From: a virus | DNA length: 64,000 nt | IMG/VR virus record: IMGVR_UViG_3300028844_005363 | Location: 1 to 64,000 of that record | Direction: 5' to 3' (one strand) | Notes under the pieces: model-generated | The model's database searches: none | What the model saw: only the letters and a program-made list of their open reading frames with translations | Told to the model about the DNA's origin: nothing | Shown: positions 7,974-49,676 of the stretch, in pieces | Layout of the letters: the number at the start of each line of letters is the position of its first letter | How positions within the stretch are numbered: position 1 is the first letter of the stretch | Translations under genes and position numbers: made by a program

Positions 7974-8189
7974 TTGAAAAAAGGTTTCCGCAAAACATTT
8001 TCGGACTTCCGTGAAATTGTAGCAGGGCTAGCTTGTCTAGCTTTGTTACTTGGTTTCATAGCTTCTATTTCTTATATAGCAGTAGCACTAGTAGTATTAT
8101 TCTGCGTATTTGGTGTTATCTATGTAATTAAAGAGGCGGGGAAAGACCCATCCGAAGATGAGTCTACTGAGGATAAAGCTGAAAGGTAG
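7974..8189 (+). CDS. Small membrane protein
   Basis: Long hydrophobic stretch; last + gene before convergence with vRNAP. Confidence 0.55.
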   Translation: MKKGFRKTFSDFREIVAGLACLALLLGFIASISYIAVALVVLFCVFGVIYVIKEAGKDPSEDESTEDKAER

Positions 8190-11100: not shown

Positions 11101-14100
11101 ATCTAAGGCATTCATGAATGCACGGTTAGTTGTACCAAATACCAAAAATTCATGTAGGTATGAGTTTCTACCAACACTGTCATTATTAGTATTGTTATAA
11201 ATATAATCATAACGTAACTGTGCCGCTGCTAATTCAGTAGGGTAACTTAATGACTGTTCGGTAATTACCACACCATCTCTGTCAACCATTTGGTTAGCAG
11301 AATTAATGTTTATGAAGTCTTTAGCTGTAATCTCCTTACGACTAATTTCCCACATCTTTTCTAACTGACGCGAAACCAAACTATTAGCATTAATACCTAT
11401 CTGTGTAACGTGATGCAGTAATTCATGTAAGTAAGTTTCTTGTGCACTCATTTGAGTACCGTTGGCTAACATACCACGTCCAATGTTTAAGAATACTTTA
11501 TCGTTTTGGATAGCACCTACAGTAGTGTTACCACCTGAACGAACATGCAGCTTAATCGGGTCCATTACTTTATTAACTAACGTACCAAGTAATTTCTCTA
11601 AATGCTTAGTGTGAGTAATAGGGTCACTTACATTACCTACTTTACCTAGCACATTGAATATCTGTTCAGAGTTCATGGCATCTACTTCGCGAGTACTTGA
11701 AGCCACAAAGTTCTCTATATCAATACTAGATACACCGTCAGAAAATAATGTACCTTGGTTTTCATCTACAGGTCGTCTTAAAACAACAGTTGTTACATCC
11801 GTGTCTGTAGAGAACAAATCAACTACCGTATACTCACTAGTCGCATTAACAGCATCGGTGATGTACTCGTAGTTAACTTCTTTTAGAAAGTTTTCCCCAA
11901 TCGTTACATTAGTGTCGTTGGCTATAGCACCATCAGGCATAGATATTTGCACATCAACTGGTACTACTTGCAAGTCATCCAATACTAAAGCTAACTGGTT
12001 CGCTCGCTCTGCTTCATACACTTCTAAGTTATTAAAGTTAATCTCAAACTCATTGCGTAATGTCCCAAGAAGTCTACGCCCTTTTCTAGTGTCCAAAGAC
12101 TCAACAGCCTTATCTACTTCGTCCAAAAACTCTTTAGCAGTTTCTTTAGAGTAAATACTTTTAGCAGTACGTTTAGGTGCGCGCTCTCCCGGTTTAGGTA
12201 TGTTGAACGTTTCAAGAAATTCAGCTTCCACTTCTTGAAAACCTAATTCAGTTAACGAAGGTAAGTTAGTTTTATATGCACCACCTTCCCCTTTATTGTA
12301 CTGCTGTACTACTGCAATTTTGTTTTTAATAACTGCGCGGTACTGCTGCGTTTCTTGCTGCATTACTTTAAGAGCAACTGACATATTAGGCAGTTCTTCA
12401 AAATCTGCAGGGAACATAGAAGCATACGCGTCAAGTACTCTTGAATGCATCTCTGCTATGTTGTCTACGATACTAAAATCACTCATGGCAACATCAGTCA
12501 TAGCCTTATTAAAAGTCTCAGTGCCTTTTTCTACATCATTAAGTGAGAATATTAAGGCATCATGTACGTTAACCGCAGCGTACTCAGCCATGGTTAAATA
12601 CATAGTAGCAGCATCCATACCATGTACTTGACCAACTACAGCATTAGGACCAGCATCTTCAAATGTTTGGTTATAAGACATAGAGTTTAATGAACCAACT
12701 GGCTTAGTAGGTTTATTTGTTTGGTGCGTACCTGTGTGACCACGTTCATTGTATGAATGAGGTTTGCTGTACTTATACTCGATACGAGATGTAGCATCCT
12801 TGGTTACAATGTTTTCTTTGCCTACAGGCATGAAACCATCTTCAACACTTTCAGAAAAATAGTTAGCCATTATAGGCATTACATTTTTAAGGTCGCGCTC
12901 TATTTCTAAATAATCTTCTTGGCTCAAGTCTACAAAGTTAGGGTCTAGTGCTTTACGTTCAGCCTTCTCTGACTCTATGCGCGCATGGTACATTTTCTTA
13001 AACATAGTGGTTGCTTCGCTAACGGCATTCACCAACAATTTACGCGACTCTACGAATGTACCAAACTTCTCATCCATTGCTGTTTCTAGCGGTGCGCCAA
13101 AGTAGTCGCTTACCGTATCTACAAAATTAGCAACGTCTACTTCATCAGTTAAGCCAACTTTCTTATCTAATTTAACTCGTTTACCTACAACGGTGTTTAC
13201 TGCATTACGAAGTTCTTCAACACGTGCACGTGCCTTTGCACCTTCTGCTTTGGCTTCTGCTCGTTTGTCGAAGTTTTTAAGTGCTAGTACGCCTTTGTTA
13301 GAAGCTATGAACTTATCAGTTACTTCTATAGTAGCTAGGTTCTTAGCAATCTCTTCATGCAGCTTATCCAGTACAGTCATAGAGAAGTTGGCTATAATTT
13401 TCTTAATAGCAGCACCGTAGTTAGAAGTCATTAGTGGGTCTTTAGCCAATTGACGACCTAACTTAGTTACTACATCTAAAGCAGAAGAAGACTCTTTATC
13501 TTCTATAAACGAACCTACTATAGTTTCTAAAGCATTAAGCTTGTTAAGATTTACCTTGTTCTTTTTAAGGCGTTGCACAGCGCGCTGCTCACCTTTTGTA
13601 AGGTTATCGTAACCAACACCTGTAGTGATCACCTTTTTTAATTCTTTAAACGCATTAGTCCAGCCTAGTGAAATATCTTCATAGCTATCATAGTTGCCTG
13701 GTTGTTCACGCCATTTAGCATATGTCATATCTGGATCAGTAAACATACCAGTACGTGCAAGCATGGTTTCAAGTTGTGACCATGTAGATGCACCTACTAT
13801 TTGAAGTAAGCTCAGTGCTACACCATTCGTTAAACCATCAACCTCACGACCGATGTCAGTAACAAACGATGTCTCGCCATTAGCATAGGCACGTTTCTGT
13901 GAAGCCAATGCAGATATACCATCTAGGCTAAACATGTTGTTACCACCTGCTTGGATACCAGCAAGTAAGGCTGCTTGGTTCTCAGGAGTATGCCCCCAAT
14001 CTTCAATAGCGATATATGCATCAACAGCTTCTTGTATTACTGGCTTATCAATAGTGCTTCTCGCAGATGCAACACCAGCAGCAATTGATTCTTTATCTGG

Positions 14101-17100
14101 TGATGTGCCTAATGCTTCACCTACGGCGATATAGAAGTTATCCATCAGTTGTAGGTCTGACTTACCAATCTTCACTGTGAATGACTCAGGCGCTATTACA
14201 TGCCTATGGTTCTTATCTGTTTGAATATTGATAGTGTTTGATGCAATACCCATTCGGAAGTTTTTCCATACCACATGCATGAAGTAGAACGGTGATGTTT
14301 TATCCGCACTACCATCCCAGAAATCACGCATATGCTGTAAGCCACGAATCTTAGCTTCGTTGTTACGTAGTATAGAATTATGGTTTAGTGCATGCTCACC
14401 TGATAGGTCATGTTGTACCCCGCCGATCACTTCTTGAGCTTCTTCATCAAGTGACAGCAATACACCCATTAAACCAGTCTTCCAAGTATGCTTAGTGTGT
14501 GACGATTTCTCAGCAATCTTTTTAATTTTGCTTGGGATATTCTGATCACTAGCTAAAAGCTTCTCCTGCACAAACTCAGGAGGAGTATCATGTGGTGCTG
14601 TTACAGTTGACTCAACATCAAATAGTTTCTCCATTAGCTTACGTCCTGATGTCATATCAGTAGTAAAGCGAGTTAGTGAAGCTGCCGGTGTAAATTTATT
14701 TACACTAGACTCAGCAACGTTAATAAACTTAGTGTTTTCAACTGAACCAGTTACAGTAGGTAAGCCTTGCACAAAGTTTAGTGTGTTGTTATTTACCTGA
14801 GTAATTTTTACTAAGCCTTGAGCTTCAAGCACATCAATAATTTGGAAACCAATTGATATTTCCATTTTACCTTTTAGAATAGCTTCGGTAGTTTTAGGTG
14901 CATTGATACCTAACGAGCGTAAATAAGTTTTACCTAGTTGTTCAGCTACAGTACGTAAGTTGTTACCTACATCAGCAAGCAAGTCTTCTTCTAAACGACT
15001 TACTATGTCATCTTGTTTCTTGTCTTTAAGTAGCGCATTAATAGCTGCATCATCATTAACGAAACCATCAAACGCTTTATCACCTAAGTAGTTGTAGGCA
15101 ACGATAGCCATACCAGCAACAATATTACCGTCAGTATTATGACCAGTAATTGTATTAAACAATTCCTGTGATGGATTTCTGCCTGTGTATCGTGGGTCTG
15201 CTTTATTGAATGTAGCTTCAAAGTTCTCACGGAAGTCTTGTGTAAATTCCTGAATATCAAGCAGCTTAGTACGCTCTTCTTCATTAAGGTCTTTAGCTAC
15301 AGCCATATCGCTAATATCTAAATCAAAGAAGTTCTTTTCATTGGCTAAAACACTTTCAGTTTTACGTACTTTAAACTTACTCTTTAGGAATGCATTCTCT
15401 TCCAAAGCACGTTTAATTGTATAAGTAGGGCGCTCCAAAAAGTTCTTAGCTACGCGTAAACCAAAACGCTTAAACGGTGTATTGGCTCGCGCTTCGCTTT
15501 GCCCATTAGCGTAAACTTTAAGACCTGCTGTTACATCACGTAATGCTTGCTCACGGTTCTCAAAAGGTACTTTCTCAACAAACTTTTTAATAGAGTCTAA
15601 AATCTTATCTACTCGTTGTTTGCCGTCAGCTTTTTTAACCTTATTCAATCCAGTAGACAGTGTTTTACGTAGGTTAGCTGTGTTCACATACTGACCAACA
15701 TACTCACGAACAGTATCCAAGGCATCACGTTTGCCTATAGTTTCGTTCTGAATAGCATCTACTTTTGCGTAAAGCTCTTTAGATAATTCTGTATCACCTA
15801 TTTTTTCAGCGAATGCAGCTTGTTCAATAAGAGTAAATAATTCAGGGTTAGCTGATTTAGATGCACGGTTCTTAAGGTCTATGCTAGCAACGCGTCTAAG
15901 CGATTTTAAGGCACGTAATTGTTGTGCTGCCGTAAGTGCTTCACCACTATCTAATATGCCTTGTACAGTCTTAGCTGCTTTGCTCTTAGGGAACTGTGAA
16001 ACCAACTCATTAGTCTCAGTAGTCTGTATTGCTTGAGTTGCTTCATAAGCATCTTTTGCTTTTGTTGAGCCAGATTCTAAATCAGTCAATACATTAAGTG
16101 CTGTAGCTAATGAACCATAACGCTTAACTAACTCACGGTTAGCTAATTCAGTTTGTTTAAATGCATTCTTACTTTCAGATGCAAAGCGTACTGATGTATC
16201 AAAAGCTTCCTTTAATTCAAGGTCAGGCATTACAGCGAAGTCAGTAGCAATATTACTTGGTACGTCAGCGGCAGTAATCTCAGGTGTTGAGTCATTGTTG
16301 ATAGTGATACCAGCTTCGGCTACAGCAGCTTCCCATTCAGCAGTAACCGCAGCATCACTTTCTGATATTGGCGTACTATCAATCGCAGCTTCTACAGATT
16401 TAGTTGTAGCTTCTGATGTTGTAACCACCGGCACTACTTCACCATTAGGTGTGATAGGTGCAGCTTCTGTTACTTTTGGTTTATTACCAAATTTTTTCTG
16501 CATCATTAATGACGCTTCTGATAGTGCATGTTTAAGTGCAAAAGCTTCTGCTTTCGTAGCAGCTACTAATTTACCAGTAGTATTATCAATAGTGATACCG
16601 GTCTTCTCAGCTATACGTGCAACTTCTGGGTCATTAGGATTTTTCTTATAAGCAGCAAAACCTTGTTTAAGTGCCAGGTACTTTGCCATGTGACCTTTAG
16701 CAAATGATGCAAAATTATTTATGGCAGATGTTGCACCGGCAGTGTCATTATTATCAGTGGCTAATTGGATCACGTTCATGTGATCAACTAAACCCATATT
16801 AGTCTCACTACCCTCAAACACTTCACGATTTACTTCTTCAAGTGTTTTGGCTTGCTCTACTGCTTGTTGAGTAGATACATATGATTTAATACGCGAGGTA
16901 GTTTCAGCAGTTAAACCATCTGCTTTAAGTAAGTCACTTGCTTGCTCTGATGAAGGAGCTGAGTTTAATACTTGGTTCGCAGTACTGTTAGCATCCGTTG
17001 GGTTACTAATTTCAGCAATAGAAGTAATTGCAGCAGCCAAGTCTTCTGAGCTTAATTCATCAAAGCGTTTCATCTGACCAACAGCTTTAATGTACTGAAC

Positions 17101-19263
17101 CATCTTGGCTTGCTTTGCGGCTACAGCTTGTTGGTCTTCAGGGGTTGCTATTGCATCTGTCTCAGCAGTAACTTCTTTATACAAGTTAGTTATGTGAGTA
17201 CCTACTTCCTGAATTTTTTCAGCAAGTGGTTTGTCTGGATTACTTTCCAATACTTTACGTGACAACAATACAGCCAATGCATCTTCTGCTTTGTACGTAT
17301 CTTTAGTGCTATCTAAAATAGCCGCCGTGTTACCTGATGCAATTGCTGATTCAACGCGCGCAGTACGTTTGATTGATTCAGGAACCAAAGTAGATGCATT
17401 AGGTACGTCTATTTTATCTAGCACCTTTTTAACCGCAGTGCCTACTTTAACTAGGTCTTGTGTACCACCAGATACTACGCCCGCACCAGCACCAGTAAGT
17501 CCACCAGCTAAGCTACCCGCAGCAATACCAGCACCAGTACCTTTAGTAATACCAACATCTTTATCAGCAAATACTTTTACAGCAGTGTTAGCTGTAGTTT
17601 GACCTAGACCAGACTGACCAGCTTCCTCAAGCGTTTCGCGTATAGCACCTGCCGCAGGTTGGGTTAGTATTTTAGGTATCGCTTTATCTAAACCACCAAG
17701 TCCTGTAAGTAAATTACCTTCAAATTTTGAAGCACCTGTTGCCTTAGAAATTAAACCAGCACCTAAACCTACCATTACTAATGTAGTGTCAAAGGTTCTT
17801 TTTGATAGTTCCATACGAGCATCTTCAAAGCTCATACCTTCTTTACGTAAATCTTGGTACTGAATATTAGATGATAGTGTTTCTTCTGATTTACCAAGTA
17901 CTCTCGCCTTAGCATCTACCGCATTAGACAAACCTTCTGATGCACTTACATAAGCCAAGTTGGCTCTTGATGCAGCTTTACTTAACGCAGCCTTACCCAC
18001 ATCACTAGCTTTATAAGCAGTAATTTCAGCAGCAGATAAACCACTAAGTTTAGATGCTTGAGCAGCTTTACCTACAGCACCACCAGCAAATAGTTGAAGT
18101 GAGCTTTCTAAAGCCACATCGTATAAAGCTAGCTTATTGGTTTTGTAGCTCTCGAGTGCCGCCCCAATATCACCACCAAGGTCAACAACACTAGCGCCAA
18201 GTTCTGAGTAACCTTGATTAAGCATTTTCTCAATACGAACTTCGCGACCTTCGTCACGTATTTGACCAGAGCGAGCCACTTCTTCTAATTCAGATTTAAC
18301 CTGATCACTATTAAAGTTATCGGTAATAAATTCACGCGCTTGGTTAAAATTTTGTGATAGCGCTTGGTCATTACCAGTAAGCTTTTTATTAATACGACTA
18401 GATATAGCATCTAAACTATCTGGTTTTAAATCAGTACCGGCTAATTGGTCTACAGCACCTAATGCTTCGCTTACTGGATTCTTTCTTGATAACAGATCAA
18501 GTGCACCGTAAGCCATCTGTCCTAAACCTAAAGCACCTTTAGCACCTACAGCAGTAGCAATATCCTGATTTACTTCTAAGTCTGTTCTAGGCTCGCGTAG
18601 GTCTTTACCTTTGATAACAGCATCACGATGTTTAGAAACAGCGGCATCTAGTTCACGGATACGCTTTTCACTAGGTGTTAAGCCACGTGTCTCATCATAG
18701 TCAGGTGACACTTCTTGAGTAGGTTTGTACTTACTAATATTTTCAGGCGTAGCTGGGGCTACTCTTGTTAGTGTAGTTGGTGTACCTTCATGCGTATTCT
18801 GCTGATAAATATCAAGACCTTTAGTTACATACTGAGGTGTTTTCTCAAAAGGTGCCGTGACAGTATCAAATGCTGCTTTAGCATAAGCAAAACCATTATT
18901 GGTAGTTGGTTCATTTGTTGGTTCAGGTGCTTGTGCAACTACAGGGCGCTCAATATTTGGAGGTGTGAATGTAGGTATGCGTTGCACGTTCGGTGCAATA
19001 TCAGTTTGTGCAAACAATTGTTGCTCACCTTCTGCATAAGGTCTTGATTCAGGCACTACGTCTACAGGACGTTCAATAGCAGGTGCATTAGCTTCAGGGT
19101 TCATGTGATTTACAATGTCAGCAAGCATATCTGCATTTACATTTAGTGTACCGCGCTCGCCAGCACCCTGAATATTACTTGCAGTTTTTATTACATCTTC
19201 GGGTGACATACCACGGGCAATTAGTGTTTGTGCAATATCTCTGGTGCTTGGGGTGTTCGCCAT
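8194..19263 (-). CDS. Virion-encapsidated RNA polymerase (N4 gp50-like vRNAP)
   Basis: 3689 aa, no Cys seen. Motif A EVDGLTNG, motif B RQLAKDPLMTSNYG, motif C NVHDA; C-terminal HELLH; ending QMSDFVARY...FIDYD; SD AGGAG. Confidence 0.97.
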   Translation of the reverse strand: MANTPSTRDIAQTLIARGMSPEDVIKTASNIQGAGERGTLNVNADMLADIVNHMNPEANAPAIERPVDVVPESRPYAEGEQQLFAQTDIAPNVQRIPTFTPPNIERPVVAQAPEPTNEPTTNNGFAYAKAAFDTVTAPFEKTPQYVTKGLDIYQQNTHEGTPTTLTRVAPATPENISKYKPTQEVSPDYDETRGLTPSEKRIRELDAAVSKHRDAVIKGKDLREPRTDLEVNQDIATAVGAKGALGLGQMAYGALDLLSRKNPVSEALGAVDQLAGTDLKPDSLDAISSRINKKLTGNDQALSQNFNQAREFITDNFNSDQVKSELEEVARSGQIRDEGREVRIEKMLNQGYSELGASVVDLGGDIGAALESYKTNKLALYDVALESSLQLFAGGAVGKAAQASKLSGLSAAEITAYKASDVGKAALSKAASRANLAYVSASEGLSNAVDAKARVLGKSEETLSSNIQYQDLRKEGMSFEDARMELSKRTFDTTLVMVGLGAGLISKATGASKFEGNLLTGLGGLDKAIPKILTQPAAGAIRETLEEAGQSGLGQTTANTAVKVFADKDVGITKGTGAGIAAGSLAGGLTGAGAGVVSGGTQDLVKVGTAVKKVLDKIDVPNASTLVPESIKRTARVESAIASGNTAAILDSTKDTYKAEDALAVLLSRKVLESNPDKPLAEKIQEVGTHITNLYKEVTAETDAIATPEDQQAVAAKQAKMVQYIKAVGQMKRFDELSSEDLAAAITSIAEISNPTDANSTANQVLNSAPSSEQASDLLKADGLTAETTSRIKSYVSTQQAVEQAKTLEEVNREVFEGSETNMGLVDHMNVIQLATDNNDTAGATSAINNFASFAKGHMAKYLALKQGFAAYKKNPNDPEVARIAEKTGITIDNTTGKLVAATKAEAFALKHALSEASLMMQKKFGNKPKVTEAAPITPNGEVVPVVTTSEATTKSVEAAIDSTPISESDAAVTAEWEAAVAEAGITINNDSTPEITAADVPSNIATDFAVMPDLELKEAFDTSVRFASESKNAFKQTELANRELVKRYGSLATALNVLTDLESGSTKAKDAYEATQAIQTTETNELVSQFPKSKAAKTVQGILDSGEALTAAQQLRALKSLRRVASIDLKNRASKSANPELFTLIEQAAFAEKIGDTELSKELYAKVDAIQNETIGKRDALDTVREYVGQYVNTANLRKTLSTGLNKVKKADGKQRVDKILDSIKKFVEKVPFENREQALRDVTAGLKVYANGQSEARANTPFKRFGLRVAKNFLERPTYTIKRALEENAFLKSKFKVRKTESVLANEKNFFDLDISDMAVAKDLNEEERTKLLDIQEFTQDFRENFEATFNKADPRYTGRNPSQELFNTITGHNTDGNIVAGMAIVAYNYLGDKAFDGFVNDDAAINALLKDKKQDDIVSRLEEDLLADVGNNLRTVAEQLGKTYLRSLGINAPKTTEAILKGKMEISIGFQIIDVLEAQGLVKITQVNNNTLNFVQGLPTVTGSVENTKFINVAESSVNKFTPAASLTRFTTDMTSGRKLMEKLFDVESTVTAPHDTPPEFVQEKLLASDQNIPSKIKKIAEKSSHTKHTWKTGLMGVLLSLDEEAQEVIGGVQHDLSGEHALNHNSILRNNEAKIRGLQHMRDFWDGSADKTSPFYFMHVVWKNFRMGIASNTINIQTDKNHRHVIAPESFTVKIGKSDLQLMDNFYIAVGEALGTSPDKESIAAGVASARSTIDKPVIQEAVDAYIAIEDWGHTPENQAALLAGIQAGGNNMFSLDGISALASQKRAYANGETSFVTDIGREVDGLTNGVALSLLQIVGASTWSQLETMLARTGMFTDPDMTYAKWREQPGNYDSYEDISLGWTNAFKELKKVITTGVGYDNLTKGEQRAVQRLKKNKVNLNKLNALETIVGSFIEDKESSSALDVVTKLGRQLAKDPLMTSNYGAAIKKIIANFSMTVLDKLHEEIAKNLATIEVTDKFIASNKGVLALKNFDKRAEAKAEGAKARARVEELRNAVNTVVGKRVKLDKKVGLTDEVDVANFVDTVSDYFGAPLETAMDEKFGTFVESRKLLVNAVSEATTMFKKMYHARIESEKAERKALDPNFVDLSQEDYLEIERDLKNVMPIMANYFSESVEDGFMPVGKENIVTKDATSRIEYKYSKPHSYNERGHTGTHQTNKPTKPVGSLNSMSYNQTFEDAGPNAVVGQVHGMDAATMYLTMAEYAAVNVHDALIFSLNDVEKGTETFNKAMTDVAMSDFSIVDNIAEMHSRVLDAYASMFPADFEELPNMSVALKVMQQETQQYRAVIKNKIAVVQQYNKGEGGAYKTNLPSLTELGFQEVEAEFLETFNIPKPGERAPKRTAKSIYSKETAKEFLDEVDKAVESLDTRKGRRLLGTLRNEFEINFNNLEVYEAERANQLALVLDDLQVVPVDVQISMPDGAIANDTNVTIGENFLKEVNYEYITDAVNATSEYTVVDLFSTDTDVTTVVLRRPVDENQGTLFSDGVSSIDIENFVASSTREVDAMNSEQIFNVLGKVGNVSDPITHTKHLEKLLGTLVNKVMDPIKLHVRSGGNTTVGAIQNDKVFLNIGRGMLANGTQMSAQETYLHELLHHVTQIGINANSLVSRQLEKMWEISRKEITAKDFININSANQMVDRDGVVITEQSLSYPTELAAAQLRYDYIYNNTNNDSVGRNSYLHEFLVFGTTNRAFMNALDKVDMTVAPANSLWKNIWAGDITSTFLKIVERLADQLGQRITGTKNLNGSEAMMQMAHALASVDNTKKGTIAATYDRATTALDAKVKATALWAVAPLTAILKSKPAQAIKPVANLANAAKSALHTKAPAYAVALRDMSKRMGMTEKNLLGSIAREIAGSDKLSRPWEVMNRIANKMVDQTRLAAAKAVEGHLVDNFEEGVLTAEKRTAVLKGLLKTEISSLLDDGDYSMNQIRGFIESSEKLSKEIGRLTRKLENDYPGNKNYYRKMATSLGSYMATGVHTENLGKMNAHVIANLYGLDNAEVTIEGNVEAAETTIDYLASLIALQKTNPTQIKELRSLVASEFARDPINNGITFTIAVNKDFRERAFNELFDGDPINVQKGYTKEIYDPNVTYEVGSLEDVIEMQNANFFRVGNNPLPKDPLDPNQEDRYLFVNRDGLVTTWQAGATSLTSKKAKGKTQFQIRAAEYEDIDDAAAIAGEDFDGYQNQQGAMIEALFSDAPSYVEAGSSPLVPILGKTGKTRAYRYLMNEQTKEQLLDKNNDFVTNMGVMDASIVDKKNSAEINKEVVSLAYKQFRTEYQKDPSDFVKIGIDSHDPAYKEIYQMLPKEMRMEIKRVWRSDNMYVPATLVPLIFGQRKWSVSNIGKDLTLEGVSNDALRNMLISAGGVLNKPWVKKTENVWQEIMKLVKDVIVVRSGVVLAGNIASNVLLLMAKGVNPKDAVNAHTVAVRAANKHQRDTKELDRLNRLTRIGQGTAETKLRIARLKNSIAVNPVNDLINAGVYQSIVEDLASVDDTYTYKNQLQKWASPVTDKLPNSLKTGLKVATIAQDTSVYKFLRDTTQMSDFVARYSLHEHNLKKGMDPKESIQDIVQTFIDYDNPTHVALQYANDMGMVMFTKFFLRIQRVIADLILNHPGKVLQIATLQAALVDMPDVLDSFIPFTDVIGKINLNPVGEAIDGLTALPLIAATE

Positions 19264-31967: not shown

Positions 31968-32674
31968 TGAGCTTTAATGTATACAAACAAGGTACCAATG
32001 GTTACGCACTTTACTTCGCTAAAGGCGATTGGCGTGAGTCGGCAAGTGTTCGTAATGATCAACTTAAACCAGTAGCTGAAGCTATGATTGGTATTACAGG
32101 TACTTTGAACCATGGCAAGAATACTTTAGCTGGTCTAATCCAGAGTCATTTAGTAACTACCAAACGTAAAGAGATGGCTTTTGGGGATGCACCTAAAGTA
32201 ATACTACAAAAAGTATTTCCTAAGTGGACTTCAGCACACTTTTATACGCGCGAACTTAAAGAAGCTGTTTGCCCTATATATGGTATTAGTCCTCGTACAG
32301 CTATGACTAAGTTCGGTACTGACTTTATGCGTAACTCACTTGGTTTACCACGTTACTGGATTAACTTATTAGAGGAGGATATGGAAACTCTTGGCCGTAA
32401 ACCAGAAGACGTAATCATTACTGATATACGTTTTAATAATGAAGCTGCTTGGGCTAAGTCTAATGATGGTTTCATTATCCGTATACGTGACCCTCGTAAA
32501 CCTGTACCTACTGAAGAAGAAAGTGAGCAAGGTATCTCTACCATGTTCATTGATTTCGATATAGAAAATGATGGCTCTATTGATGACATCGTAGATAAAC
32601 TCCTTATACTGAAACCTCTTTATTACTTACCAAAGAGTTTTCCAGAAGATGAATCGCGAATATTCCCTCAGTAA
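31967..32674 (+). CDS. Deoxynucleoside monophosphate kinase
   Basis: IGITGTLNHGKNT, AFGDAPK, SPRTAMTKFGTD, ITDIRFNNEA, ESEQG, IENDGS. Confidence 0.85.
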   Translation: MSFNVYKQGTNGYALYFAKGDWRESASVRNDQLKPVAEAMIGITGTLNHGKNTLAGLIQSHLVTTKRKEMAFGDAPKVILQKVFPKWTSAHFYTRELKEAVCPIYGISPRTAMTKFGTDFMRNSLGLPRYWINLLEEDMETLGRKPEDVIITDIRFNNEAAWAKSNDGFIIRIRDPRKPVPTEEESEQGISTMFIDFDIENDGSIDDIVDKLLILKPLYYLPKSFPEDESRIFPQ

Positions 32675-33119
32675 AAACAGTCAAGCAAAGGTAGATACGT
32701 GCGCTCCTATTATTAAATCAGTAGTAGCGCGCGCTATGGAAATTGCTAATACTCGTAAATTACACTGCCCTGATTGGGGTGTTAGTTCAGGTAAACGAAC
32801 CACTGATGAACAATTCAATATGTACCGTAAAGGTCGTTCAATGGTTATCAAAGATAAAGGTTCAAGTGAGTACGCTGTAGTTGACCCATTTAAAGTTATT
32901 ACTAATGCGGATGGTTACGCTAAGAAGTCAGCTCATCAAACTGGTTTAGCTATTGATATTTATTGCTATGTTGATGGTCAAACTAATTACGACTTTGATA
33001 ATTTAGCTGCTGTTGCTACATGCTTATTTGCTGCTGCTTGTGAACTAGGTGTGCATCTAGTTTGGGGTGGTAACTGGAATAGCCTAACGGATGCACCTCA
33101 TTTCGAGGTGAAGCTATGA
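32649..33119 (+). CDS. Endolysin, peptidase M15 (L-Ala-D-Glu type)
   Basis: GKRTTDEQ..MYRKGR, SAHQTGLAID, WGGNW..DAPHFE. Confidence 0.88.
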   Translation: MNREYSLSKNSQAKVDTCAPIIKSVVARAMEIANTRKLHCPDWGVSSGKRTTDEQFNMYRKGRSMVIKDKGSSEYAVVDPFKVITNADGYAKKSAHQTGLAIDIYCYVDGQTNYDFDNLAAVATCLFAAACELGVHLVWGGNWNSLTDAPHFEVKL

Positions 33120-33673
33120 ATATATTAATCCATGGTTACAATGTACGTGACCCAATGACTACTGTAGGGCGTTTACAGAAGCGTTTATCTAATACCTATC
33201 TATTTGTATATGGTTGGTTTGGTTTGACCTCTGTACTGCTATACAACAAACGTGAAGCCATAAAACTTAAAGAGCTTTTAGACCAGCATCCTGAAAGTAC
33301 TGTTTATGCACATTCGAATGGTTGTGCTATTGCTGTATTAGCTGCTGAGTTGGGAGCCAAGATTAAAACATTGGTTTGTATTAACCCTGCGCTGAAGACT
33401 GATTATGTATTCCCAGATACGATTACTAATGTAGGTGTGGTTCATACTAAACATGACGTACCAACTAAGGTAGCTCGTTTCTTGGATTACGTACCGTTTA
33501 TTCAGTTGATTGTACCTAACGCATGGGGAGCCATGGGAAACTATGGTGCAGAAGATAAGCGAGTTAAAAACTTTGATTTCAGTGATTACTTAGATGGGCA
33601 TAGTGCTTTTTTTGAGTATAGAAATATGGATATATGTTTGCCTGTTGTTCGTTCGTGGGTAAAACAATTGTAA
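33116..33673 (+). CDS. Alpha/beta hydrolase (lipase/esterase-like)
   Basis: LIHGY oxyanion motif, AHSNG nucleophile elbow, INPAL, D, GHS. Confidence 0.8.
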   Translation: MNILIHGYNVRDPMTTVGRLQKRLSNTYLFVYGWFGLTSVLLYNKREAIKLKELLDQHPESTVYAHSNGCAIAVLAAELGAKIKTLVCINPALKTDYVFPDTITNVGVVHTKHDVPTKVARFLDYVPFIQLIVPNAWGAMGNYGAEDKRVKNFDFSDYLDGHSAFFEYRNMDICLPVVRSWVKQL

Positions 33674-33677
33674 AATT

Positions 33678-33706
33678 AGCCATCCTTCGGGATGGCTTTT
33701 TTATTT
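33678..33706 (+). terminator. Terminator at convergence point
   Basis: AGCCATCC-TTCG-GGATGGCT followed by TTTTT. Confidence 0.9.
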
Positions 33707-33710
33707 GGAA

Positions 33711-34157
33711 TTAAATGCCGTCCTTATATTTTTCAGTGAATGATCGCATTTCATCTTTCATAGGTTGCATCAACTGTGTAATGCCACTAACTATGTCATG
33801 TTTAATTACCTGAGAAACCAAATAATCTAAAGATACTGGTTTAGGCATATAGTCTACAACACCTAAATGTATCGATTGGCTTAGATTATCAGGGTCATCA
33901 CTACCAGAAACGAATATAACAGGAATGTCCTTAGTTACTTCATTAGACTTCAAGGCTGTGCAAACCTGAAAGCCATCCATGCCTGGCATAACTAAATCCA
34001 ATACTACAAATGAAGGTTTATGTTCTAGGGCATATTCCACTGCTTTTGTGGGATCAGCCAAAGCAATTGCTTTAACTCCCGCACGCTCAAAAGCTTCTAG
34101 GAATACACGCCTATCTAAAGGACTATCATCAATAATAAGTACAGTCGCATTACACAT
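33711..34157 (-). CDS. Stand-alone CheY-like response-regulator receiver protein
   Basis: VLIIDDS, VVLDLVMPGMDGFQVC, IPVIFVSG, GVVDYMPKP. Confidence 0.92.
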   Translation of the reverse strand: MCNATVLIIDDSPLDRRVFLEAFERAGVKAIALADPTKAVEYALEHKPSFVVLDLVMPGMDGFQVCTALKSNEVTKDIPVIFVSGSDDPDNLSQSIHLGVVDYMPKPVSLDYLVSQVIKHDIVSGITQLMQPMKDEMRSFTEKYKDGI

Positions 34158-34160
34158 ATT

Positions 34161-34463
34161 TTATTCCTTGTTGTGATTATGCTGCTGAAGATTAGTTAAA
34201 GTCATGCTGTGCAATCTTTTTTCTAAATCCAGTTCAGCCCGCAAAATCGTGTCGTTAAGTTTTCGAAGGTCAACCCCAAGCGGAACCAGTTTACCATCTA
34301 TGTCGGTTAACTTTGCCTGAATGATTTCAACATCTTTTTTTAAGTTGGCATTATCCAATGCAAGAGCTTCAATCTTTTCTTTCTGCTTACTCCAAGCATT
34401 AGCTAATGCACCAATAGGTACTATTAAAATTGCCCAAATGAAAGACATTAAATTCAAATCCAT
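34161..34463 (-). CDS. Single-TM coiled-coil protein, holin-like
   Basis: N-terminal TM then leucine heptads; sits where N4-like holins lie, after the tail genes. Confidence 0.5.
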   Translation of the reverse strand: MDLNLMSFIWAILIVPIGALANAWSKQKEKIEALALDNANLKKDVEIIQAKLTDIDGKLVPLGVDLRKLNDTILRAELDLEKRLHSMTLTNLQQHNHNKE

Positions 34464-34604
34464 ACTTACCTCTATTTTGATTACCTGCCTCTATCAGATC
34501 AGAGAAATACACCTCTGAGGTGCTATGTTACGCAAGTATTAGATATAAATATAGGAATACCCGACTGTACTTAATCATACAGTCAGGGTGATTACAGAAG
34601 CTTT

Positions 34605-35903
34605 CTACATAGCATCCAATTCTTCTAAGTAAATACGATCAGACATAACAGCTCTATCAAATACTATTTCCTTATTATATAGCTTGTTGTTTATCATAAC
34701 GTTCTTCAAAGTGATAATGTCGCCTGTAGCATAAAAACGCATAATAGGCGTAATACTAGCATCATCCAGCAAAATCTTACCGCCGATAACATCAATACGT
34801 GAATTATCAGAAGAGTAAGCTATGTTGGTTCGTAGCACTGAACCTCTATCCAAGCTAAGCTCATCAAACGATTGCGCGTCACCATATATGTTACAACCAA
34901 TTACTTTTACATAGCCCTGTGATTGCACACAAGCACCTTCATCACGAAAAGCTCTTGTATTTTTAATAGTACAACCAATCAGCTTATTGGTTAACGAGTA
35001 TGACCATACACCAACACCGTATTTACAGGTGTTCATTGTAGAGTCTACTACGCGCATATCCCCACCTTTACAATCAATACCTCGGTCGCCACAATTTAGA
35101 AAGTGACTATCATAGATACGCTGCTTAGTACCCGCATTAATAGTAATACCATCACCTTGAATATAACTGTCGATAATCTCCCCTGTATTATTTTGAGTGA
35201 AACCACAGTTTTTAACATACAGACTTCTTATGTATAAGTTATCTGCAATGTTACAAGTGATTGCATTAGGGTACGCCGCGCCTTGCACCGAAGCCATATC
35301 AATCTTAGCATCAGTAATTGTAACGTCCTTAACATTGTCGTATAGACGAATACCAGCTTTCTTCAAGTACTTCGCTCTAAAATTATCCACAACTACAGGA
35401 CCATTAGTAGAAGCTATATATATACCGGTAGATGCGTTAAACACTTTAATATCAGAAAGTCTATTACTGCCTGAATTAGAGTGCATATACAGTGCGCTGT
35501 TAAAGTGAAAGAAAGTCATGCACGTTATATCGGTATGCTTAGATTCAACAAAAAAAGCCAAAGCACCATCACTATCTGTATTTTCCCAAGGATACTGTGT
35601 AACCCCTAAAAAGTAAGGAGCCGTATCTCTCGTAGGTAGTACCGCATTACGTGAAGGGGCGCTACCACCTATAATACGTAACTTACCTTCGCTGCTTCCG
35701 CTATTGGCTTGATATGTATGAATACTGTCATCTATATCTATGTTACTTTTTTCGCCTTTTATTTTACTTATAAGCAAAACATCATCTTTACCTAACTTGT
35801 CGGTGCTGTCTAAAATTTTAGATTTAATTTCAGCCAATCCCATTGAGTTAGCCCAAGAACCACCAGTGTTTGAACCACTAGGACTTGCTCTGTATATACC
35901 CAT
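34605..35903 (-). CDS. Parallel beta-helix tail spike / polysaccharide depolymerase
   Basis: Repeating beta-helix rungs (GDGITIN, CGDRGIDCKG, GVGVW). Confidence 0.7.
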   Translation of the reverse strand: MGIYRASPSGSNTGGSWANSMGLAEIKSKILDSTDKLGKDDVLLISKIKGEKSNIDIDDSIHTYQANSGSSEGKLRIIGGSAPSRNAVLPTRDTAPYFLGVTQYPWENTDSDGALAFFVESKHTDITCMTFFHFNSALYMHSNSGSNRLSDIKVFNASTGIYIASTNGPVVVDNFRAKYLKKAGIRLYDNVKDVTITDAKIDMASVQGAAYPNAITCNIADNLYIRSLYVKNCGFTQNNTGEIIDSYIQGDGITINAGTKQRIYDSHFLNCGDRGIDCKGGDMRVVDSTMNTCKYGVGVWSYSLTNKLIGCTIKNTRAFRDEGACVQSQGYVKVIGCNIYGDAQSFDELSLDRGSVLRTNIAYSSDNSRIDVIGGKILLDDASITPIMRFYATGDIITLKNVMINNKLYNKEIVFDRAVMSDRIYLEELDAM

Positions 35904-35967: not shown

Positions 35968-37995
35968 TTAAGCCCATAACCAAGTACCGTCGCCTTGACC
36001 TACAGGTGACTCACCAACTTTTGGTAATGAACCATTAGCATCAATAACTGTACTTACTTCATAAGGGAGCGCAATGAAGTTACCTTTATTAATGTCTTTC
36101 TGGTTTAAATAATCAGTGTCTACAATCAAGTAATCTATAATTGGTAGTTTACCTGATGCATCCCAAGCAACACCATCTACGGCAAAATCAAATGCAAATT
36201 TAGTCGCACCTTCAGGCACTACTACAGAACGGTATGCACCATTAACGCCATCGTGATAGCTAGCGCTACCCTTAGCTACAATGATGTCATTGTCGTCAGC
36301 AAACCAATAACTGCTATTATCACCACCGGTGTCTAGCTTAATAGTATAACCAGCTTCTAGCCCTGTGATAATAGTAGTGGTTCTACGTTCTGGTGTCGTA
36401 GTACTCAGGCGCAATATATTACTAGCTGCACCTCCGTTATACCAAGAACCTGCTTGCACACTAAAAGTTAAAGGTGATGGCGCATAAAGCTTAGCTTCGT
36501 CTTCCATAGTCATAAGCATACGAGATTCTTCAGGTAACACATTACTAAAAATATAATTAACTAATCTTCGTAAACCATTATAATTTGGATGCGTGAAATC
36601 CAAGTAATACTCGTCCATTAAATGTACGGCTTTGGTTGCTGCCTTGCCACTAACATAAACACTATCTTCAAATTCTAAAGGTAATGTTTTGTACATAGCA
36701 TCAAGCTCATCATTGTCCGATGCACCTGTTTCGTTAGGTGATACAAATACAATTAAAGTATTAGGTCTTGAAGCTAGATAGGTATTGAGTCCATTTACAA
36801 TATCCTGTTTCACTTCATCTACCGTCTGTCCGCTGTGGTTAATACCTAACGACATTTCTAATATCGTTGTACTGCCTGTTCCGGGGGTACGTGTTATTGC
36901 TTCAGTCAGGGTAGAGTTACCGGTATTACTTCTCCAATTACCTGCTGTTTGACCACCACTAGAATTTTCTAAAGCTTGAAAGTTTATCTTAGCTAACTGT
37001 GGTTCATAGTAATCTAAGGAATCAACCTCACCACTTAATCGTGTACTGTCACCAGTAACTACATAGGTGTAAGGTGTCTCAGACTTTAAGGCATCAAGGA
37101 AACGTTGTTTGATAGCAGTGGTTACTATTTCTGTACCGCCACCAACATCACCGTCATCTACAGCACCGCTTATTACTTTCCAGTCTTTTGCTGTAGAAGT
37201 ACCCAGGGCAACAAAGTACTCACCAGTGTTAGGGTTAATTAGTCGCTCACCTTCGTACAATGGTGCATGAATAGGTGTGCTTCTAACTGGTATAACTTCA
37301 TTTTCTAAACCAGTGTAAAAATCAGCTTCTGTTGGTTCTGGGTAGTCAGAGTAAGTAAGGTACTTATCTTTAACATACTCATCACCATTTTTGTTGTAAC
37401 GAACATCGAGGTCATACTCACCTTCAGCATCAAAAGCACCTAAACCCTCCTGACCTTCCATGTTCTCTGAAATCATAGTCCAACGTTCTTTACTATTATT
37501 TATTGTATAAATAATATAAGAAGGTACTTTTAATACACACTCGCCTACGTCTTCTTCCCTGATATGCAATTCACCAGCAGCAAACAACCACTCTGAACCA
37601 TACTTTATAAGCACATTAGCAAGACCATCATCGTCTTTAAAATTACCTAGCGTAACCACACTAATATCTTTTAAAGCTTCTTCGTCCATAAGTAAGAAGT
37701 CCGCATAAGTAGGCACTAAAACACTACCACCCGAACCACCAATAACAACACCTCCGGGTGTCACTCCATCATGTAAGTGGATCTCCCACTTTTCAACATC
37801 AAGAGTAAGTTCCCCTTCCATACCTATAAAATTTTTATTTTCTTCTGTAGTTCCCTTTTTTGGTCGCAGTACTCGGCTGCCTTCTGTTTCTGTAACGAAA
37901 CCGCCAATGAAATCACTATTCATTCTTTCAAGTGATTCCGCTATCTTACTACCACACTCTTTGTCGTCATCACAACTAATTGCAATAATACCCAT
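35968..37995 (-). CDS. Tail fibre / receptor-binding protein: Mtd_N-like region plus SGNH esterase
   Basis: GTTEENKNFIGMEGELTLDVEKWEIHLHDGVTPGG; SGNH blocks GDST, GG, LGIN, DFTHPN; TAATG coupling to the upstream gene. Confidence 0.75.
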   Translation of the reverse strand: MGIIAISCDDDKECGSKIAESLERMNSDFIGGFVTETEGSRVLRPKKGTTEENKNFIGMEGELTLDVEKWEIHLHDGVTPGGVVIGGSGGSVLVPTYADFLLMDEEALKDISVVTLGNFKDDDGLANVLIKYGSEWLFAAGELHIREEDVGECVLKVPSYIIYTINNSKERWTMISENMEGQEGLGAFDAEGEYDLDVRYNKNGDEYVKDKYLTYSDYPEPTEADFYTGLENEVIPVRSTPIHAPLYEGERLINPNTGEYFVALGTSTAKDWKVISGAVDDGDVGGGTEIVTTAIKQRFLDALKSETPYTYVVTGDSTRLSGEVDSLDYYEPQLAKINFQALENSSGGQTAGNWRSNTGNSTLTEAITRTPGTGSTTILEMSLGINHSGQTVDEVKQDIVNGLNTYLASRPNTLIVFVSPNETGASDNDELDAMYKTLPLEFEDSVYVSGKAATKAVHLMDEYYLDFTHPNYNGLRRLVNYIFSNVLPEESRMLMTMEDEAKLYAPSPLTFSVQAGSWYNGGAASNILRLSTTTPERRTTTIITGLEAGYTIKLDTGGDNSSYWFADDNDIIVAKGSASYHDGVNGAYRSVVVPEGATKFAFDFAVDGVAWDASGKLPIIDYLIVDTDYLNQKDINKGNFIALPYEVSTVIDANGSLPKVGESPVGQGDGTWLWA

Positions 37996-38699
37996 TAGCA
38001 CCAACCCTCATCAGTATTTTTCATTTCTTTAGATATTAGATTAATAGTATCTTTACTTTCTAATCTAGCGCATTCATTTTGGTATATAGAGTAGTAATTA
38101 TTACTCTGGGATTCCCCAGCCAATGATTTACGATTCTTGTAAATACGATGACCTATGTAAGCCAATAAAGCTTCCGTGAATTGTATAGGTAAATTTATTT
38201 CTTGCCCTTCAATGTCATCACCTTCAAGTCTAATTTTCGGGTGTTTAGCCTGATAAATTACATTGTACATTGTGTCCTGAATAGTCTCAGGAAACTCAAT
38301 AGTATTGAAGCTTGGTAACATTACTGACGAACAAAATGATTCGTTATTAATGAATACTGGTTTATTACACGCGTCCACCACTCTATCTATACGAATAATG
38401 TCATCGGTAAAAGGTGCGCTTGAAGAATCTATAATGTACTTATTTGGTTTAGTACTTATAGTACTTAAAGCATAATCACTTTTTAAGTGGTAAGTGGTAA
38501 CACCTGATACCTGCTTTAATAGCACATTACTAAATCGCAATTCAAAGCGTGCATGCAAAGCATCTAAGGCTGCATTAATAGCAGGTATAACTTGTACGTA
38601 CTGGTCTGGCTGAGTAACTGTTTGGGTGTCATCACCACCTATAGATAAGTGCGCTAACTCCCCATAAGCCAAGTGTTCTAATATGTCACTAACTAACAT
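37995..38699 (-). CDS. Head-tail adaptor/tail protein, N4 gp67-like
   Basis: LAYGELAHL, INAALDALHARF, FTDDIIRI, YQAKHP, EALLAYIG. Confidence 0.8.
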   Translation of the reverse strand: MLVSDILEHLAYGELAHLSIGGDDTQTVTQPDQYVQVIPAINAALDALHARFELRFSNVLLKQVSGVTTYHLKSDYALSTISTKPNKYIIDSSSAPFTDDIIRIDRVVDACNKPVFINNESFCSSVMLPSFNTIEFPETIQDTMYNVIYQAKHPKIRLEGDDIEGQEINLPIQFTEALLAYIGHRIYKNRKSLAGESQSNNYYSIYQNECARLESKDTINLISKEMKNTDEGWC

Positions 38700-47178: not shown

Positions 47179-47541
47179 ATGAAGATTCAAGAATTGTTAA
47201 ACCTGTATAAATCTAACTGTAACACTATCGAAAATGGTGTTGCTGCTTTAGGCAATGCACAGGTAGCAATAGTCAGTAAGATTTATGACTTGACTGAACA
47301 AACCAAAGCATCGGTTTTACTCACTCTTGAGCAAACCAATCTGCTTACTGAGGTTGATGCTATTCGTGACCTTAGTGATGATGATTTCTTATTACTACAG
47401 GATTTAGTAATGGAAAGTGATGAAGCATCTCGTTGGCATAACAGCAATGTAGATGTCATCGTAGATGTGTATTCCACTTGGCATCCTTGTGATGTATGTA
47501 GTGGTGCTTACACATTCGATGAACCTTGTGTGTTTCATTAA
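47179..47541 (+). CDS. Early hypothetical protein with C-terminal CxxC
   Basis: SD AAGGA; HPCDVC. Confidence 0.7.
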   Translation: MKIQELLNLYKSNCNTIENGVAALGNAQVAIVSKIYDLTEQTKASVLLTLEQTNLLTEVDAIRDLSDDDFLLLQDLVMESDEASRWHNSNVDVIVDVYSTWHPCDVCSGAYTFDEPCVFH

Positions 47542-47738
47542 TGAGTAAGGTAAGTTCATTAATTACGGCACTATCTACAACGATAGTGCTGCTCCTCATT
47601 CTTAGTGTTACACCACTAGAATTATATAGTAGTCAGCCAATCAAGTTAGCTAAATACTTCTTGGTTGCTTACTCAATTACAACAGTCTATTACATGATAG
47701 CTGTGTTCATTGAAAAGGTTACACCTCATGAAAAATAA
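47541..47738 (+). CDS. Small two-TM membrane protein
   Basis: TAATG coupling; two hydrophobic helices. Confidence 0.6.
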   Translation: MSKVSSLITALSTTIVLLLILSVTPLELYSSQPIKLAKYFLVAYSITTVYYMIAVFIEKVTPHEK

Positions 47739-49466: not shown

Positions 49467-49676
49467 ATGAATAAACTCAAAACAGTATGTGGCTTACTAG
49501 TACCAGTGCTAATAACCCTAGTTTTAGGGTTCTTCGCGCTAGGCAGTACAGTAGCAATGATTTATACAGGTGAAATTATACCTGTGTATATTCCATTAAA
49601 TATATTGATGGCAATCGTCATATGGATGATTTGGCACTCATATATTCAACTTAAAAAATCAACAGGAAGTAAGTAA
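49467..49676 (+). CDS. Two-TM membrane protein
   Basis: Hydrophobic helices; SD AGGA. Confidence 0.65.
   Translation: MNKLKTVCGLLVPVLITLVLGFFALGSTVAMIYTGEIIPVYIPLNILMAIVIWMIWHSYIQLKKSTGSK

Follow-up and report, generated by a model that had tools for sequence, protein, structure and literature searches.

What would a bacteriophage gain from a response-regulator receiver that comes with neither an output domain nor a kinase? This question is raised by two adjacent minus-strand genes of a marine virus, IMG/VR record IMGVR_UViG_3300028844_005363, of which the stretch from position 1 to 64,000 was analysed (64,000 nucleotides, hereafter the window). The record itself is a complete IMG/VR virus genome of 74,757 bp from a marine metagenome sample, with the hallmarks of an N4-like schitovirus, namely a virion RNA polymerase open reading frame (ORF) of 3,689 amino acids (aa) at 8194-19263 on the minus strand and a portal protein 51-53% identical to the portals of cultured Schitoviridae. 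The upstream gene of the pair (34161..34463, minus strand) encodes a bitopic membrane protein of 100 aa with one transmembrane (TM) helix and a coiled coil, here called TM-CC. The downstream gene (33711..34157, minus strand) encodes REC, a single-domain response-regulator receiver of 148 aa (PF00072) whose last helix extends into a stalk that closes with a conserved tail. The recognition of TM-CC/REC as a conserved, co-diverging module near lysis genes is new, and the window copy is a new member of a family that is uncharacterised, though already sequenced.

The TAA stop codon of TM-CC (34163-34161) and the ATG of REC (34157-34155) leave a gap of 3 nt (34158-34160), as an earlier note on this DNA had stated for a receiver placed behind a single-TM coiled-coil gene. 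Full-length homologues of REC, stalk and tail included, occur in the Alteromonas siphophages R9Y1-3, in the T7-like Foturvirus phages H4/4 and R8W, in two uncultured contigs (L005, 45 kb, and L011, 84 kb; loci are cited by L numbers) and in a Glaciecola siphonariae prophage (L017). Upstream of each lies an ORF for a coiled-coil protein of 83-121 aa with one TM helix, either overlapping REC or 3-5 nt away from it; indeed, wherever the context of a close REC homologue could be read, a TM-CC gene immediately precedes it. More distant versions in myovirus V22 (ORF29/ORF30), L013 and L015 keep the same layout, and the schitovirus A5 has the same gene pair as gp10/gp11, known to us from its publication only (PMC10579305). 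As a control for this pairing, all short receiver ORFs in 190 fetched loci were inspected, with at least 165 bits taken as family level. A directly upstream one-TM ORF of at most 170 aa accompanies all 13 family-level REC ORFs (six distinct lineages), as against 1 of 40 generic short receivers, the one being a pseudo-receiver in the phage lysis cassette of L015.

Not only the layout is kept. An hhalign comparison of the window-type TM-CC group with the Alteromonas TM-CC group gives a probability of 86% (E 5e-6) over the full length, and the pairwise identities of TM-CC and REC correlate over ten lineages (Pearson 0.73, Mantel p ~4e-4). Strict pairing and correlated identities together indicate that the two genes are inherited as a unit that moves between unrelated phage backbones. 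The earlier note had staked its proposal on conservation of the pair, which is thus found conserved and co-diverging over unrelated phages, beside lysis genes. The active-site residues of REC are retained in nine of the ten lineages. The tenth is L015 (L015:3989-4444; IMGVR_UViG_3300015214_000145), whose pseudo-receiver has N10, A54 and A106 and still has its TM-CC partner; judging from these residues, the module of this lineage must work without phosphorylation. At the distant end of the family, V22 ORF29 matches the TM-CC profile with 54% probability over 41 columns, the architecture being common to both and homology not established. When metagenome contigs were scanned with the REC profile, generic receivers dominated the matches and no new family member with a partner emerged, and REC matches in faecal records labelled 'Bacteriophage sp.' turned out to be ordinary multi-domain bacterial regulators, not the TM-CC/REC module. 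As a side observation, L016 (PBFM01000045.1, 42,718 bp), filed under a 'Candidatus Neomarinimicrobiota' metagenome-assembled genome, agrees in length, TM-CC, REC and layout with the R9Y-like Alteromonas siphophage IMG/VR UViG_2785511424, and L016 is probably mis-binned.

The company that the module keeps is largely that of lysis genes: a recognised endolysin, holin or spanin adjoins the pair in 6 of 9 contexts, in the window in convergent orientation across a terminator. In the R9Y phages and L013, REC overlaps a GH108 endolysin gene directly downstream, and in H4/4 and R8W a holin gene (phrog_1356) stands immediately before TM-CC. Downstream of REC, L011 has DUF5675, then the gene of a small membrane protein and those of Rz-like inner-membrane (i-) and outer-membrane (o-) spanins; directly behind REC, L015 has an Rz-like i-spanin and a LysC-type o-spanin, and V22 an Rz-like spanin. 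The pair of the Glaciecola prophage comes after DUF5675 and two genes for small membrane proteins, and a minor tail protein gene follows its REC. Since the neighbouring lysis genes differ in family between the phages, the association was probably assembled more than once and not inherited as a block.

Three further observations concern these cassettes in their own right. DUF5675 (PF18925, phrog_1501) recurs at L011:4398-4787, L017:1547-1936 and L180:5571-5978, and its place at the endolysin position in L011 and as first gene of the L017 cassette suggests a cell-wall hydrolase. Proteins of 64-75 aa encoded after the endolysin-position gene (L006:4950-5177, L011:4804-5010, L013:3152-3346) share the motif T-x-(K/N)-(K/I)-D-D-(N/K) and represent a recurring, unnamed lysis-cassette gene, the L011 copy belonging to phrog_9685, a family of unknown function. 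The gene at L015:3182-3667, between the tail-fibre and TM-CC genes, codes for a lipid A 3-O-deacylase of the PagL-like kind (PF09411, E 1.2e-7) that has a signal peptide.

REC itself is a complete receiver. It matches PF00072 with E 4.7e-23 and 81.9 bits (cut-off 30.2) over residues 6-117, covering 110 of 111 profile positions, and is the single PF00072 match of the whole genome. The alignments place the acidic pocket at D10-D11, the phospho-acceptor D54 in VVLDLVMPGMDG, and S84, Y103 and K106-P107 at the remaining positions of the active site, residues that are invariant or nearly so across the family; in every detail, the complete domain described in the earlier note was read correctly. The AlphaFold2 model (pLDDT 84) is a canonical (beta-alpha)5 receiver whose elements follow one another in the expected order from beta1 to alpha5, the latter modelled as one unbroken helix of residues 110-146, a long stalk that ends in the tail P132...K143-Y144, which lies outside the receiver fold and is invariant in the non-redundant subset. 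The best Foldseek matches are ordinary receivers, led by RR468 (TM-score by target 0.91-0.92, rmsd 1.4 Å), with DivK also listed. A Pfam search found PF00072 only and no output, DNA-binding or kinase domain; the winged-helix Trans_reg_C of OmpR/PhoB-type regulators is absent, the 31 residues after the receiver being modelled as the alpha5 extension. REC thus apparently is a phosphorylatable stand-alone receiver of the CheY/PleD type.

Where the phosphate would come from is constrained by the genome. HATPase_c (PF02518), HisKA (PF00512) and Hpt (PF01627) have no match at E <=0.1 in the complete 74,757-bp sequence, while the same searches were positive in 10 to 14 of 14 control genomes, so that the lack of a histidine kinase, first noticed for the window, now extends to the entire phage. 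TM-CC/REC is therefore not a classical two-component system, since neither operon nor genome holds a kinase or Hpt protein, and REC could be phosphorylated only by a host histidine kinase, a host phosphotransferase or acetyl phosphate. From the absence of a kinase, it is a reasonable inference that REC reads or drains a host phosphorelay.

Its partner is harder to name. The N-terminus of TM-CC is acidic (MD...) and leads into a single TM helix (about residues 3-23), which is followed by lysine-rich SKQKEK and a coiled coil; D65 ... A76 ... R83-L84 form a conserved motif in the C-terminal part. AlphaFold2 models the protein as a single long helix at low confidence (pLDDT 69). In all 13 TM-CC homologues (window plus 12) the N-terminal flank has a net charge of zero or below, and the 15 residues after the TM helix carry +1 to +3, the value in L015 being 0. 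Of three i-spanins encoded in these loci, two have the opposite bias, and the third is uninformative. By the positive-inside rule, TM-CC is predicted to be N-out/C-in, opposite to i-spanins, with a cytoplasmic coiled coil that would share the compartment of REC.

TM-CC has no Pfam family match, and its best PHROG match is the holin family phrog_19508 (E 2.3e-4, TM helix alone). It is laid out like a holin, being small, with a single TM helix and a C-terminal part that is charged and helical, about 1 kb from the convergent M15 endolysin, and its homologues lie within lysis cassettes in other loci. The term holin-like gene used in the earlier note is weakly supported: the PHROG match speaks for it, while TM-CC belongs to no holin family, and a PHROG-recognised holin co-occurs with it in H4/4 and R8W, as do holin-like small membrane proteins in L011, L017 and V22. 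A profile search of 1.84 billion representative proteins returned 57 proteins at E <=1e-3 and 15 at <=1e-10, so that the TM-CC family is small; credible members measure 80-153 aa and have in common the C-terminal motif D-x-R-x-(M/L)-A-x-S...A....E-x-R-L-D-x-L. No fusion of TM-CC with REC ('Rosetta stone') occurs among the 57 representatives, longer matches being unrelated coiled-coil proteins. Structural look-alikes in the ESM Atlas are unnamed viral clusters and generic long-helix proteins that give no functional lead, a search of IMG/VR with the profile gave only the loci already described, and among 301 Alteromonadaceae genomes the only real match is the Glaciecola siphonariae prophage, the others being weak coiled-coil noise. 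A dual start as in lambda S107 (M1/M6) was considered for the window protein and dropped, as the motif is not kept in the homologues.

In the window, the tail-fibre gene (35968-38004, minus strand) precedes the gene of a beta-helix tailspike (34605-35903, minus strand, stop at 34605; PF13229), and a spacer of 141 nt with a weak terminator-like hairpin (34509..34523, minus strand; a consensus match only) separates the latter from TM-CC. Two minus-strand Shine-Dalgarno sequences can be read: GAGGT (34468..34472), 4 nt 5' of the TM-CC ATG (34463-34461), and AAGGA for REC (34165..34169), inside the last TM-CC codons. Another study's marine metatranscriptome library contains a contig of 151 nt that is an exact match to 34412-34562 and covers the spacer hairpin and the TM-CC start, a match that cannot show transcription; the DNA sequencing runs, of which a small share was sampled, cover only 34296-34489 here.

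On its other side the pair meets a convergent operon behind a GC-rich hairpin, AGCCATCC-TTCG-GGATGGCT (33678..33697), which was scored as a plus-strand terminator, is without a matching T run for the minus strand and probably terminates both operons. Convergence on an endolysin operon, as the earlier note had it, is borne out: the plus-strand island consists of a MazG-like gene, an unknown gene, a dNMP kinase, an M15 peptidase endolysin (32649..33119, plus strand; PF13539, E 3e-11; phrog_465 'endolysin', E 1.6e-31) that is soluble and without N-terminal signal or SAR helix, and an ORF of 185 aa (33116..33673, plus strand) in ATGA overlap with the endolysin gene. The 185-aa ORF matches neither a Pfam nor a PHROG family; with its alpha/beta-hydrolase-like AHSNG motif, it may encode an esterase that acts on envelope lipids during lysis. 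Pylas, another N4-like phage, has its genes for holin, antiholin, endolysin and spanins in the island on the opposite strand that separates portal from tail-fibre genes, and N4 has gp60-63 at the equivalent position; the window island has the endolysin and no membrane genes. Neither N4 gp60-63 nor the holin, antiholin and spanins of Pylas gave a tblastn match to the genome, and no holin, antiholin or spanin is recognisable anywhere in its 74,757 bp. Near the endolysin, no membrane protein other than TM-CC was found, and the late region has no further small one. Small ORFs with two TM helices lie elsewhere in the window, at 7974-8189, 47526-47738 and 49467-49676.

With these data in mind, we lean, tentatively and as on a question that is close to balanced, towards TM-CC/REC being an accessory of the lysis cassette that senses host phosphorylation. 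The two proteins would be co-translated as one module, and TM-CC would insert into the inner membrane with a few N-terminal residues in the periplasm and with coiled coil and C-terminal motif in the cytoplasm. REC, charged by a host histidine kinase, a phosphotransferase or acetyl phosphate, may then dock on the cytoplasmic part of TM-CC via its alpha4-beta5-alpha5 face and the tail; the conserved stalk tail, the conserved C-terminal motif of TM-CC and the predicted common compartment point to such a specific protein partner. In this way the pair could relay cytoplasmic phosphorylation, and with it the physiological state of the host, to holin triggering and shift the timing of lysis. In phages with a separate holin (H4/4) or holin-like proteins (L011, L017, V22), it would regulate lysis in the manner of an antiholin or a holin modulator. 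In the N4-like phage studied here, where no other holin is recognisable, TM-CC itself might be the hole-former, a variant to which we give about one third of the accessory reading. The most specific version is a phospho-gated lysis clock, in which an orphan receiver is charged by the host, binds its dedicated membrane partner and sets the moment of holin firing, all within a cassette exchanged horizontally among unrelated phages of one host clade; this we regard as possible, though doubtful.

A number of observations weigh against a role in lysis sensing. In L005 neither neighbour of the pair, a 132-aa membrane protein and a 152-aa protein, has a recognised lysis function (an idea by eye that one of them is a transglycosylase was supported by no tool). 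The contexts are few (about nine lineages), come mostly from one host clade and are not fully independent. The pair adjoins tail-fibre genes as consistently as lysis genes; as lysis cassettes usually lie just after tail-fibre genes, the adjacency could reflect a common hot-spot for accessory genes, and the position beside lysis genes is not decisive by itself. TM-CC belongs to no described holin, antiholin or spanin family, and the contact of REC with TM-CC or any lysis protein is putative; a complex prediction of REC with TM-CC residues 24-100, which scored 0.01 in a run without controls, carries no weight either way. Helix alpha1, on which kinases dock, is the least conserved element of the REC family, and L015 has lost D54 and K106, so that phosphorylation is not essential in every lineage; both call for caution over a simple model in which REC reads one host kinase. 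Finally, the published interpretation of these receivers as auxiliary metabolic genes (AMGs) or parts of a host-recognition module (PMC10579305, PMC7289586) differs from ours.

The same evidence has to be weighed for a function in host signalling unrelated to lysis. Tethered near sensor kinases by TM-CC, REC could be a decoy, either a phosphate sink or a dominant-negative partner of a PleD/WspR-type regulator, that silences or redirects a two-component or c-di-GMP pathway late in infection, its location by lysis genes being merely where accessory genes are tolerated. We consider this unlikely, and it is nonetheless the main rival. In the PDB, REC is matched best in sequence by the first receiver of PleD (E 4e-35; the runner-up has 1e-24), and Foldseek aligns REC over its full length, stalk included, with WspR, PleD and RssB. 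The nearest cellular relatives with a partial match to the stalk, Alteromonadaceae proteins of 352 aa, appear by eye, without a domain search, to be REC-GGDEF enzymes, which would fit a receiver and stalk cut from a host diguanylate cyclase. Some homologues carry the source name PilH, the phage encodes no kinase, and homologues have been published as a PhoB AMG for low-phosphate adaptation (R8W g48; PMC8228385) and as CheY-like class II AMGs in a horizontally exchanged host-recognition module (V22 ORF30 and A5 gp11; PMC7289586, PMC10579305). A decoy, however, leaves unexplained why the pair shows translational coupling or overlap with the genes of endolysins and spanins on several unrelated backbones and why a dedicated membrane partner co-diverges with REC; moreover, a decoy of a single kinase should conserve alpha1, which is the most variable element, and the L015 pseudo-receiver cannot be a phosphate sink.

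The tail-fibre genes suggest yet another function, in host recognition or superinfection exclusion, whereby the pair would alter pili, flagella or capsule through a CheY/PilH-like contact and so block superinfection or keep progeny from sticking to debris. In the window, H4/4 and R8W, L011, L013 and L015 it comes right after genes for tail fibres or tailspikes (in V22, ORF28 intervenes), V22 gp29-32 and A5 gp10-13 are reported to have been swapped together with tail fibre and chaperone (PMC10579305), and the PilH-named relatives would fit as well. Yet in the R9Y phages one has to go six genes upstream from TM-CC to reach a gene annotated as tail fibre, and the Glaciecola prophage has candidate lysis or membrane genes upstream and only the minor tail protein gene after REC. 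The tail-fibre proteins next to the pair are mutually non-homologous, while lysis genes recur, and late expression would leave little time for surface remodelling, so that we judge this function quite improbable. Least probable is that TM-CC is an i-spanin or another structural part of envelope disruption, with REC as an unrelated passenger. An N-terminal TM helix followed by a coiled coil is i-spanin architecture, there is a weak match to the Rz-like spanin family phrog_739 (E 2.6e-3), and, as said, the genome has no recognisable spanin elsewhere; the charge distribution, however, is opposite to that of the informative i-spanins of the same loci, no lipobox ORF for an o-spanin lies in or beside the TM-CC gene, and L011, L015 and V22 have separate Rz-like spanin genes beside TM-CC. 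The strict pairing and co-divergence of REC with TM-CC speak against a passenger.

How does the module compare with known systems? Its closest counterparts, the pairs of R9Y, H4/4, R8W, V22 and A5, likewise consist of a one-TM coiled-coil protein and then a receiver of 147-153 aa with stalk and tail, with lysis genes adjacent; their receivers are 41-42% (R9Y and H4/4/R8W) and 28% (V22) identical to the window protein. These pairs, however, sit on siphovirus, T7-like and myovirus backbones inside a co-directional lysis cassette, whereas the window pair is a separate two-gene unit that ends a tail-fibre operon and converges on the endolysin island. CheY, DivK, CpdR, PilH and Spo0F are single-domain response regulators that work through protein contact or as phosphate sinks, and REC resembles them in standing alone, its phospho-acceptor site complete and an output domain lacking; unlike them, it is a phage-encoded, kinase-less orphan with a 35-aa alpha5 stalk plus tail and an obligate membrane-protein neighbour. 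The REC-GGDEF proteins PleD and WspR are its closest relatives in sequence and full-length fold, and its alpha5 stalk resembles the stalk helix of WspR, but REC has no GGDEF domain and ends after the stalk in the family-specific P...KY tail.

Among lysis-timing regulators, T4 RI and RIII with holin T, lambda S107 and N4 gp62/gp63 are, like TM-CC and REC, small accessory proteins in or beside a lysis cassette, yet none of them is known to use a two-component receiver. The N4 pinholin gp63 has one TM helix and a cytoplasmic helical domain proposed to receive a cytoplasmic signal, as in TM-CC, the 'receiver domain' of gp63 being a name for a regulatory stretch that is not CheY-like (PMC12642591). 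N4 gp62/gp63 and the Pylas holins show no sequence relation to TM-CC in tblastn and hhalign, and the idea that gp63 is a circularly permuted relative was given up (hhalign probability <2%, nothing by tblastn). A precedent for a link between two-component signalling and holins is the bacterial LytSR system, which controls the holin/antiholin-like cidAB and lrgAB operons. This control is cellular, not viral, and transcriptional, via the DNA-binding LytTR regulator, while REC has no DNA-binding domain. To our knowledge, almost nothing is known about the input of host state to the lysis decision beyond the timing of the holin itself and lysis inhibition of the T4 and N4 types.

In the literature, the module has been hidden by the names given to its receiver. 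R8W gp48/H4/4 gp44 (L002/L003) and V22 ORF30 (L180) are entered in GenBank under 'putative DNA-binding response regulator' and 'hybrid sensor histidine kinase - response regulator', names that do not fit proteins of 149-153 aa made of a receiver and one helix. The papers on these phages and A5 (PMC8228385, PMC7289586, PMC10579305) make no mention of the nature of the membrane partner or of the lysis context, and our search of the full-text literature found nothing relevant on receivers in lysis cassettes or on phosphorylation-controlled antiholins.

In summary, the TM-CC/REC module corrects the names 'PhoB', 'hybrid histidine kinase' and 'AMG' that hide it, and with at least five cultured carriers, the Alteromonas phages R8W, H4/4, R9Y, V22 and A5, its function is directly testable. 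The phospho-gated clock, if true, would be the first case of two-component signalling that acts directly, at the protein level, on phage lysis. As the timing of lysis in the sea sets burst size and carbon release, such an input of host state would matter ecologically.

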